Sequence record: MG563770.1
From: Escherichia phage EMCL318
Length of the DNA stretch: 5,489 nucleotides
Strand: one strand, 5' to 3'
Positions 62 through 4,465 of this stretch are shown here, one piece after another (the stretch's first letter is position 1; the number at the start of each line of letters is the position of its first letter). Position numbers and translations under genes: made by a program. The notes beneath the pieces were generated by a model that saw nothing but the letters and a program-made list of their open reading frames with translations, searched no databases and had not been told where the DNA came from.

Positions 62-1732
62 ATGCAACAACACTTAACCGCTTCGGACTTCTACCGCAAA
101 CCAATAATCGACGCTATCAAACCTCTTGTCGAAACTGCTGGAATGTCTGTGCTTACTCAATCTCCTAACCTCCGTATCTGGAAACAGTGCAATACTCGCG
201 TAAAACTGCTGGAAGAAATTCTAAATCACTACACTAACGGTATTCGCCGTGATGATAATGGTGACTTCTTTCTCAACCCTGAATGCCAACTCGCTACTAC
301 AATTGCTTATCGTGCTCACAAAAAGGGCCATAACCCTCGCTTTAAACAATACCCTGAATCGTTCACTCTGGACGATATTATTACTGGCAAGCCAATCCCT
401 CAGACTGCTCCTTCTGAACTTCAACTTACTGATGAAATCGGTGAGGATTACCGCCTTACTGTACTCTCCATAATCGAAGAGTTAGACGAATGCTACAACG
501 TGCTCGGACAACTTGATATTAATAACACTATAGACCACAAACCTATCGGTAACGCCAAATGGGACTTAATGTATGAAAAACCTGTCTATAAACACTGGTA
601 TGAACTGGTATCAAAACGACCCCTTAAATCAATCAGAGAGGACTACAACTATGCAAAGGCTAAGGGTACTAAAGATGAGTGCTCGAAAATCCTTGAGGAA
701 TCCACCATGAAATCCCGGCGCGGCTTTACCGTACAAAGATTAATGAATGCTATGCGCACCGCTCACACTGATGGATGGTACGTTGTATTCGATACTCTTA
801 CCTTAGCTGATGACCGTATTAAGGACTTCTATGCTAACCCCAATGCTCTTCGTGACTATTTCCGTGATATTGGTCGTATGGTCCTCACTGCCGAGGGTCG
901 TTCGGTCCATGATTCATCTACGGACTGCTATCAGTACTTTTGTGTGCCTGAGTATGGCACCCAGCATGGCCGTTTACACTTTCACGCAGTGCATCTTATG
1001 CGCACACTTCCTTTGGGTTCTCTCGACCCTAACTTTGGTAAGCTGGTGCGTACTAATCGGCAAATAAATAGCTTGCAAAACACATGGCCTTATGGTTACT
1101 CTATGCCCATCGCAGTCCGGTACTCTCAAGATGCTTTCTCTCGCGCTGGATGGCTCTGGCCTGTTGATACAAAGGGTGAACCCCTTAAATCCACCTCGTA
1201 TATGGCTGTAGGCTTCTACGTTGCTAAATACGTTAATAAAAAATCTGATGTTGACATAGCCGCAAAAGGCTTAGGGAATCAAAAATGGAACGCTACATTA
1301 AAAACGCAGATGGCTCTTTTACCAAAGAAACTATTCCGAATCCGAATGAGCCGCAACTTCGGGATGAAACTACTCCCAATGACGACGCTCACCGCGGAGT
1401 GCTTAATCCAACTGACCCAAGTGGGTTACGACGTGACCCCGTTCAACAACATCTTGAAGCAGAACGCCAAGAAAGAGCTACGATTGAGGCTGGCAAAGCA
1501 ATCTGTAGCCGACGTTTTGGAGGCGCAACCTGTGACGACCAATCTGCTAAAATTCATGCGCAATTTGACCCGCAAAATCGGAGCGTCCAGCCTACAGAGT
1601 TTTATCGCTTCAATGACGCAGAAATTAGCAAGTACGGATATTTCTGATGAAACCAAAAACTACGTTACTAATGCAGGAATTGCTGTTGCTGACTTACGAC
1701 TTAAATCGAAGTGGACTGCTGGTGGAAAATGA
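62..1732 (+). CDS. A: Replication initiation protein A (HUH rolling-circle endonuclease), 556 aa from ATG 62; the ORF is open from an upstream ATG at 32 (566 aa)
   Basis: The translation matches recalled phiX174 protein A over long stretches ([17 protein letters not shown], MKSRRGF, [16 protein letters not shown], [90 protein letters not shown]). GGAGG at 48-52 sits 9 nt before ATG 62; no Shine-Dalgarno precedes ATG 32. The TGA stop at 1730-1732 overlaps the C start. Confidence 0.9.
509..538 (+). other. Viral (+) strand origin of rolling-circle replication: 30-nt conserved origin CAACTTGATATTAATAACACTATAGACCAC, expected nick between G515 and A516
   Basis: Exact 30/30 match to the recalled phiX174 origin 30-mer that protein A nicks. 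It lies inside gene A and encodes [12 protein letters not shown], as in phiX174 and G4. Confidence 0.85.
707..1732 (+). CDS. A*: A* protein: in-frame internal start within A, 341 aa, begins MKSRRGF
   Basis: ATG at 707 is in the A frame and corresponds to the phiX174 A* start (residue 173 of phiX A, MKSRRGF). GAGGA at 692-696 lies 10 nt upstream. The predicted length equals phiX174 A* (341 aa). Confidence 0.5.
1285..1647 (+). CDS. B: Internal scaffolding protein B, 120 aa, overprinted within gene A in a different frame
   Basis: The translation ([57 protein letters not shown]) matches recalled phiX174 protein B and has the same length. The TGA stop at 1645-1647 overlaps the K start (TGATG). 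Confidence 0.9.
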
Positions 1733-3839: not shown

Positions 3840-3848
3840 AACAAAACG

Positions 3849-3913
3849 TTGAACGGGTACAAATTTTAATTTGTGCCTGTTCAAGGTTGAACAAGCGAAG
3901 CGCGTTAGCTAAC
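3849..3913 (+). other. F-G intergenic structured region: long imperfect hairpin (3849-3884), GCGAAGC mini-hairpin motif (3895-3901) and 10-bp palindrome GTTAGCTAAC (3904-3913); candidate complementary-strand origin and/or post-F terminator
   Basis: Inverted repeats read directly from the sequence: arms TTGAACGGGTACAAATT and AATTTGTGCCTGTTCAA give 15 Watson-Crick pairs plus 2 G:T pairs. In G4-type phages the primase-dependent complementary-strand origin lies in the F-G intergenic region. Confidence 0.45.
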
Positions 3914-3931
3914 TTACTTAAGGAAATTCTC

Positions 3932-4465
3932 ATGTTTCAAACTTATCTCTCTAAACATAATTCTCCGTTAACTTCTCAGTCTATTACTGCTACAAAAACA
4001 CCTGCGGCTGCTGCTCCGATTATTTCTACACCGGAGCTTAGCCGCTCTACTATTTTCGCTGGCTTAACTCTGACTGCTGCCACTGCTCATTCTGGTGTCG
4101 CTCATGTCGTTCGTATTGACGAAACCAATCCTACTGACAATCAGGTTTTATCGGTCGCCGCTTCTTTATCTGGCGTACCGTCTGATGCTATTGCTATTGC
4201 TATTCGCTTTGAAGTCGCTGACGGTACCGTCCCTACTGCTCTCCCTGCTCTCTACTCTGCTTATCCGGTGGAATTCTTCACTTCTGGCGCTGCTCTGTCT
4301 TGTAAGGATGCCGTATCTATTCCGACGCATCCTGTTACTGCTGGTAATGATGTATATGCTGGTATTCTTATCTGGTCCAAATCTTGGTCCGCTGGTGTCG
4401 TCTCCGGCCTCTTATCTGTTAATCAGGTAAATCGTGAAACTACCGTACTCCAACCTCTTAAATAA
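3932..4465 (+). CDS. G: Major spike protein G, 177 aa
   Basis: From ATG 3932 the translation MFQTYLSKHNSP… with C-terminus …LSVNQVNRETTVLQPLK matches recalled phiX174 G (MFQTFISRHNS…LVSLNQVIKEI.CLQPLK), and the central region keeps RFE, VPT.LP.AY and GN.VY.G motifs. AAGGA at 3920-3924 lies 7 nt upstream. The ORF-track start at 3887 is a TTG extension. Confidence 0.9.
   Translation: MFQTYLSKHNSPLTSQSITATKTPAAAAPIISTPELSRSTIFAGLTLTAATAHSGVAHVVRIDETNPTDNQVLSVAASLSGVPSDAIAIAIRFEVADGTVPTALPALYSAYPVEFFTSGAALSCKDAVSIPTHPVTAGNDVYAGILIWSKSWSAGVVSGLLSVNQVNRETTVLQPLK

Follow-up and report, generated by a model that had tools for sequence, protein, structure and literature searches.

A phiX174-type viral-strand replication origin predicted within gene A of Escherichia phage EMCL318, a G4-like microvirus

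Cleavage by the A protein of phage phiX174 requires a substrate that is either a supercoiled duplex or single-stranded. The description of the origin as three parts, with their names and limits, reportedly goes back to Baas, van Mansfeld, Heidekamp, Fluit and co-workers, and van Mansfeld is said to have found in 1980 that cleavage of ssDNA needs no more than the decamer. In the phiX174 record J02482, nt 4306 is annotated as a rep_origin with the label "origin of viral strand synthesis". A 2026 preprint on the complete mutagenesis of phiX174 placed the site of cleavage and religation at G4305/A4306, inside the 30-nt ori+, and treated Tyr343 and Tyr347 of A as catalytic. In the same preprint, synonymous changes at A codons Q107–D115 were detrimental and colocalised with ori+, and H116 was not among the detrimental synonymous codons listed. 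The Ff gene II origin, the pT181/pC194 double-strand origins (dso) and the nonanucleotide stem-loops of CRESS-DNA genomes share the same chemistry, in which a tyrosine of an HUH or Rep-type initiator makes a nick in one strand and remains bound at the 5' end, with priming from the 3' OH (PMC5714925). The phiX174-type initiator differs from these in having two alternating tyrosines, so that termination re-initiates the next round (PMC5714925).

The sequence analysed here is a stretch of 5489 nt from Escherichia phage EMCL318 (MG563770.1), which in its entirety is referred to as the window. It was 98.5% identical, over 100% coverage, to coliphage WA14 (DQ079909, circular, 5486 nt), 97.5% identical to ID18 and 82–86% identical to other G4-like phages. 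WA14 is a member of the Microviridae, Bullavirinae, Gequatrovirus, with genes A, A*, B, K, C, D, E, J, F, G and H on one strand. The ORFs of the window matched this gene set, and its full-length similarity, its gene order (A-A*-B-K-C-D-E-J-F-G-H) and its size as a circle of roughly 5.5 kb were those of a Gequatrovirus. Based on the end-to-end alignment with WA14 and the same ORFs, we consider the window to be a complete G4-like microvirus genome (Gequatrovirus), linearised just upstream of gene A. Judged by this alignment, the phage differs by 1.5% from WA14, a genome sequenced in 2005–2006. In length the window differed from WA14 and ID18 only by three extra bases at 12–14, because of which window coordinates are those of WA14 +3. 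An IMG/VR contig of 5580 nt (L008, IMGVR_UViG_3300045988_000056) was 92–95% identical to the window and had a 79-nt terminal direct repeat, which indicates a circular assembly; its similarity identifies it as a further member of the WA14/ID18 sub-clade.

Gene A occupies positions 62–1732 of the + strand and encodes an HUH rolling-circle initiator (Pfam Phage_GPA PF05840, E = 2.6e-57) predicted to act on the origin within the gene; the start at ATG 62 follows the annotation of WA14 and relatives. The protein was 99% identical to WA14 gpA. The surrounding gene A was only 70% identical in nucleotides, and 67% in amino acids, to that of phiX174, and the same HUH histidines and tyrosine pair were found in both initiators. 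By alignment, the HUH motif His306-Phe-His308 (977–985, + strand) corresponds to phiX174 His263/His265, and the catalytic tyrosine pair Tyr386 and Tyr390, in the Y-x-x-x-Y sequence YVAKY (1217–1231, + strand), corresponds to Tyr343/Tyr347. The columns of the HUH histidines were invariant in 21/21 genomes. Conserved counterparts were also found for phiX174 Glu254 (Glu297), Arg261 (Arg304) and Thr202/Thr204 (Thr245/Thr247), and four of the five residues proposed in the 2026 preprint to form a duplex-opening wedge were identical, the fifth being a change from Lys to Arg. The internal in-frame start of A* was assigned to position 707 (A* at 707–1732, + strand), as A* of WA14 lies at 704–1729 and the phiX174 A* Met173 aligns to the Met codon at nt 707.

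The region upstream of gene A has several features of its own. A promoter-like site, TTGACT-18 nt-TAACAT (4–33), has the three extra bases at 12–14 within its spacer; G4 has the same length here as the window, and the spacers of WA14 and ID18 would be 15 nt. Between an in-frame ATG at 32 and ATG 62 there is a GC-rich hairpin, GCCTCC..GGAGGC (34–53), followed by TTTTCT, and the GGAGG of its 3' arm is well placed to serve ATG 62 as a ribosome-binding site. In phiX174 and G4, too, the upstream "MPPN" reading is open.

An exact-match search located the 30-mer CAACTTGATATTAATAACACTATAGACCAC as a single copy at 509–538 of the + strand. Allowing up to 3 mismatches gave no further match in the window, and none of 200 dinucleotide-preserving shuffles contained a match. 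Alignment of this segment with nt 4299–4328 of J02482 gave identity at 30/30 bases, and the identical 30-mer was present at the homologous place in gene A of both phiX174 and G4; thus, the phiX174 sequence that the initial annotation had given, and had reported as exactly present, was the right one. The rep_origin at J02482 nt 4306 falls on base 8 of the 30-mer and maps to A516 of the window, so the homologous nick would fall between G515 and A516, the position that had been proposed from the letters alone. Since the element is inside gene A, its bases also encode ten residues of A. Nucleotide 509 is codon position 1, and the origin codons specify A residues 150–159, which align with phiX174 A Q107–H116; the same ten codons are in frame in both phages, and their higher numbers here are explained by an N-terminal part of A that is 43 residues longer. 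The translation of 503–538 (12 residues) was also as first stated. With A* starting at 707, 198 nt downstream of the origin, the element belongs to the N-terminal part of A that is missing from A*.

The layout of the element agrees with the classical three-part prediction of a recognition and cleavage part, an AT-rich spacer and a binding part. The first corresponds to CAACTTG/ATA (509–518, + strand), with the predicted nick at G515/A516 homologous to phiX174 G4305/A4306. The AT-rich spacer (origin nt 11–17; 519–525, + strand) has most of the natural variation within the element, and the binding or "key" part is CACTATAGAC(CAC) (526–538, + strand), of which origin nt 18–27 were invariant in 8 lineages. 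The A+T content was 83% in the core at 516–533 and 55% genome-wide. When the 8 lineages were aligned, origin nt 1, 3–10, 12–13, 18–27 and 29 were unchanging and variation was confined to nt 2, 11, 14–17, 28 and 30, with the variants coming from alpha3-type phages, Pectobacterium phage Mimer and two GC-rich relatives.

The exact 30-mer was found by BLAST in 565 phage records of the phiX174-like and G4-like groups. The independent G4-like isolates G4, WA14, ID18, ID2, ID204, WA3, NC10 and Lilleput had the identical 30-mer at the same place, and the viral-strand origins of G4, WA14, ID18 and ID2 (Gequatrovirus) did not differ from that of the window. With a 301-nt query around the origin, the only blastn match to phiX174 was 471–538, ending exactly at 538. 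The Alphatrevirus group (alpha3, St-1, ID21, WA13) shared 28/30 bases at the same in-frame position with identical recognition and binding parts; the differences were in the spacer (T11A and A14G), both of them non-synonymous (I to N, N to S), in phages whose gpA was only 43% identical. The origin of phage Mimer differed only in its last three bases, AAG in place of CAC. Two IMG/VR microvirus contigs of 53–56% G+C, L062 (191–262) and L063 (625–696), were found by a protein-based scan and encode A proteins 32–34% identical to that of the window. They have the variant origin CGACTTGATAATACATGCACTATAGACCAT at the aligned position, in frame as RLDNTCTIDH, in which ACTTGATA and CACTATAGACCA are kept at the same in-frame place, the spacer is ATACATG and the last three bases are CAT. 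By this comparison theirs is the most divergent natural version among the sequences examined. A further contig, L061, gave no usable origin, the 5' part of its gene A being missing at the contig cut.

Searching IMG/VR with the degenerate pattern CTTGATANNANNAACACTATAG also returned a 437-kb contig (L030/L039) and a giant-virus MAG contig (L035), neither of which had an A-like neighbouring ORF, and these were set aside as chance matches to 18 specified bases. The window had no second exact copy of the cleavage decamer, and further near-matches were found only at 2 mismatches (5 found, 5.9 expected by chance). A second exact decamer, CAACTTGATA, was observed on the viral strand far from the gene A origin in L010 (= L047), where a GC hairpin directly follows it, and in Mimer (L024); a 10-mer is expected about once per 100–200 such genomes per strand, such that two cases in about ten lineages is above expectation. 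In the Mimer record (ON872163; L003/L024) gene A is annotated as several CDS and the origin-containing frame is only 984 nt, which suggests either that the gene is truly split or that the record contains a frameshift or sequencing error.

To compare constraint on the DNA with constraint on the protein, the origin-containing open frame was taken from 21 genomes, the proteins were aligned and the codons threaded back; invariance was counted over ungapped codons in the 20 genomes whose gene A is intact. Third codon positions were invariant in 10/10 origin codons, as against 39 of the 403 others (Fisher p = 2.3e-10), a lack of synonymous variation that the initial annotation had named as something to look for. 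A sliding 10-codon window reached its peak of 10/10 starting exactly at 509, and non-overlapping windows did not exceed 5/10. The longest invariant nucleotide runs in gene A were 523–538 (16 nt) and then 509–518 (10 nt), the third being 8 nt. Because the genomes are related, and in some cases nearly duplicate, the p-values compare columns on one tree and not independent events; nevertheless, the third-position contrast is very large.

The same bases had initially been called doubly constrained. This is plausible, but sequence comparison by itself does not separate the protein-level half from the DNA-level half. In alpha3-type phages and more distant relatives, the spacer does encode different amino acids. 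We consider it rather unlikely either that the peptide LD..TIDH has no role at the protein level and is dictated purely by the origin DNA, or that the G4-like sub-clade uses extra DNA contacts upstream. Regarding the latter, the 12 G4-clade genomes had an invariant block of 40 nt at 500–539, and we considered extending the origin to these limits. However, the extension adds three invariant third positions at a background of 42%, or about 0.42^3 = 0.07, which is not significant, and the data thus give extra upstream contacts no support beyond chance (p about 0.07).

A reading in which the ten-residue peptide is essential to A, the DNA has no origin function and the origin lies elsewhere could draw on the conservation of the peptide in the phiX174 and G4 groups, and on the fact that any non-synonymous change also alters the DNA. 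However, protein constraint leaves synonymous sites free, and among amino-acid-invariant columns the codon was also kept in 8/8 within the origin but in only 20/125 elsewhere (p = 1.6e-6). Even the rare codon ATA, used for 8% of Ile in the genome, is retained for the Ile of the origin. In addition, it is the peptide that varies (QLDNSNTIDH in alpha3, RLDNTCTIDH in L062/L063) while the flanking DNA blocks stay identical, and synonymous changes at the homologous codons of phiX174 were detrimental in the 2026 preprint. The synonymous-site data largely refute a constraint on the peptide only, and we judge it to be very improbable.

Overlapping genes and intragenic promoters abound in microviruses, and conservation of the 30-mer could in principle come from some other feature that overlaps it, for example an additional reading frame, a promoter or a structure formed by RNA or ssDNA. 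None of the other frames, on either strand, had an ORF of at least 25 aa overlapping 509–538, no promoter-like or terminator-like site was found at 509–538, and an E-value search gave no Rfam match anywhere in the window. The ssDNA fold of 470–580 had an MFE of -3.2 kcal/mol, compared to -5.9 +/- 1.8 kcal/mol in shuffles (z = +1.5), with 195/200 shuffles folding at least as well. We regard an overlapping feature of this kind as extremely unlikely. The essentially unstructured fold of 470–580 as ssDNA also rules out an origin presented on a hairpin, and the lack of a hairpin at the nick site agrees with the substrate requirement of phiX174. Relative to the other HUH origins mentioned above, the locus therefore differs in having a nick site without a hairpin loop and in lying inside the coding sequence of its own initiator.

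Assemblies are often contaminated by phiX174 spike-in, but the assembly of phiX174 sequencing-control DNA into an unrelated phage contig is vanishingly improbable here, as both flanks are G4-like and not phiX174-like (gene A having 70% nucleotide identity to phiX174 and 99% to WA14), which on the sequence evidence excludes such contamination, and independently isolated G4-like phages carry the identical 30-mer at the same place.

Taken together, every sequence-checkable feature of a phiX174-type (Bullavirinae) origin was found at this locus: the 30-nt sequence at 30/30 bases (the alpha3-type two-base variant would also have qualified), its position on the viral strand at the homologous codons of gene A, within the A-specific stretch that precedes the A* start, a Phage_GPA initiator with HFH at 306–308 and the tyrosines of YVAKY at 386–390, a three-part layout with no hairpin presenting the nick, and DNA-level constraint with no synonymous variation across relatives. 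We therefore conclude with high confidence, from comparative sequence evidence, that 509–538 serves this G4-like microvirus as its viral-strand (+) replication origin and works as in phiX174. It is a textbook phiX174-type ori(+), and the finding of the initial annotation is correct and already known. A full-text literature search for the 30-mer string gave no match. The closest GenBank record, that of WA14, does not have the origin annotated, and the value of the assignment for annotation is that the viral-strand origin and its predicted nick site at G515/A516 are now placed in the genome.

The comparison suggests one refinement of the limits of the origin. Phage phiX174 Q107–D115 aligns exactly to window 509–535 and H116 to 536–538, and the absence of H116 from the list of detrimental codons fits the natural variation at origin nt 28 and 30. 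The last one to three bases (536–538) are thus less constrained than the rest of the origin. Since these bases vary in distant relatives and H116 is off the detrimental list, the functional element may be about 27–29 nt instead of exactly 30. For synthetic or codon-altered versions of the phage, 509–535 are the bases that should not be recoded. The comparison also revealed which origin changes are tolerated (nt 2, 11, 14–17, 28 and 30), even with initiators that are 32–34% identical, and these natural positions agree with the mutagenesis data for phiX174.

The basis for proposing a mechanism here is the sequence identity, the homologous position, the DNA-level purifying selection, the intact active site and the lack of hairpin structure; the steps of binding, melting, cleavage and ligation we infer by homology from phiX174 biochemistry. 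The A protein of the phage would bind the right-hand part of the origin (about 526–535) on the supercoiled double-stranded replicative form, and the AT-rich middle (519–525) would open. Either Tyr386 or Tyr390 would then cut the + strand between G515 and A516, becoming covalently linked to the 5' phosphate of A516, and the 3' OH of G515 would prime the host DNA polymerase III as Rep helicase unwinds the duplex. After one turn, the second tyrosine would cut the regenerated origin on the displaced single strand, and the first linkage would be resolved by ligation, releasing the old + strand as a circle and beginning the next round. As the regenerated origin would be cut again, the same bases would also serve as the signal for termination and re-initiation.

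Two hairpins were observed in intergenic regions elsewhere in the genome. Between J and F (2521–2548) there is a tight hairpin, GGGGC-TTCG-GCCCC, that a simple terminator scan did not list; phiX174-type phages are known to have a transcription terminator after J, and this hairpin is probably it. The F-G intergenic region (3840–3931) contains a long, near-perfect hairpin at 3849–3884, with an ssDNA MFE of -16.7 kcal/mol (z = -3.26; 0/200 shuffles as good). This hairpin is also present in WA14 and, in diverged form, at the corresponding place in ID204. The F-G regions of G4, WA3 and NC10 are longer, could not be aligned to that of the window and contain a GGACGGCGAAAGCCGCCGTCC hairpin, which we take to be part of the primase-dependent complementary-strand origin of G4. 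The (-) strand origin of the sub-clade to which the window belongs may differ from that of G4.
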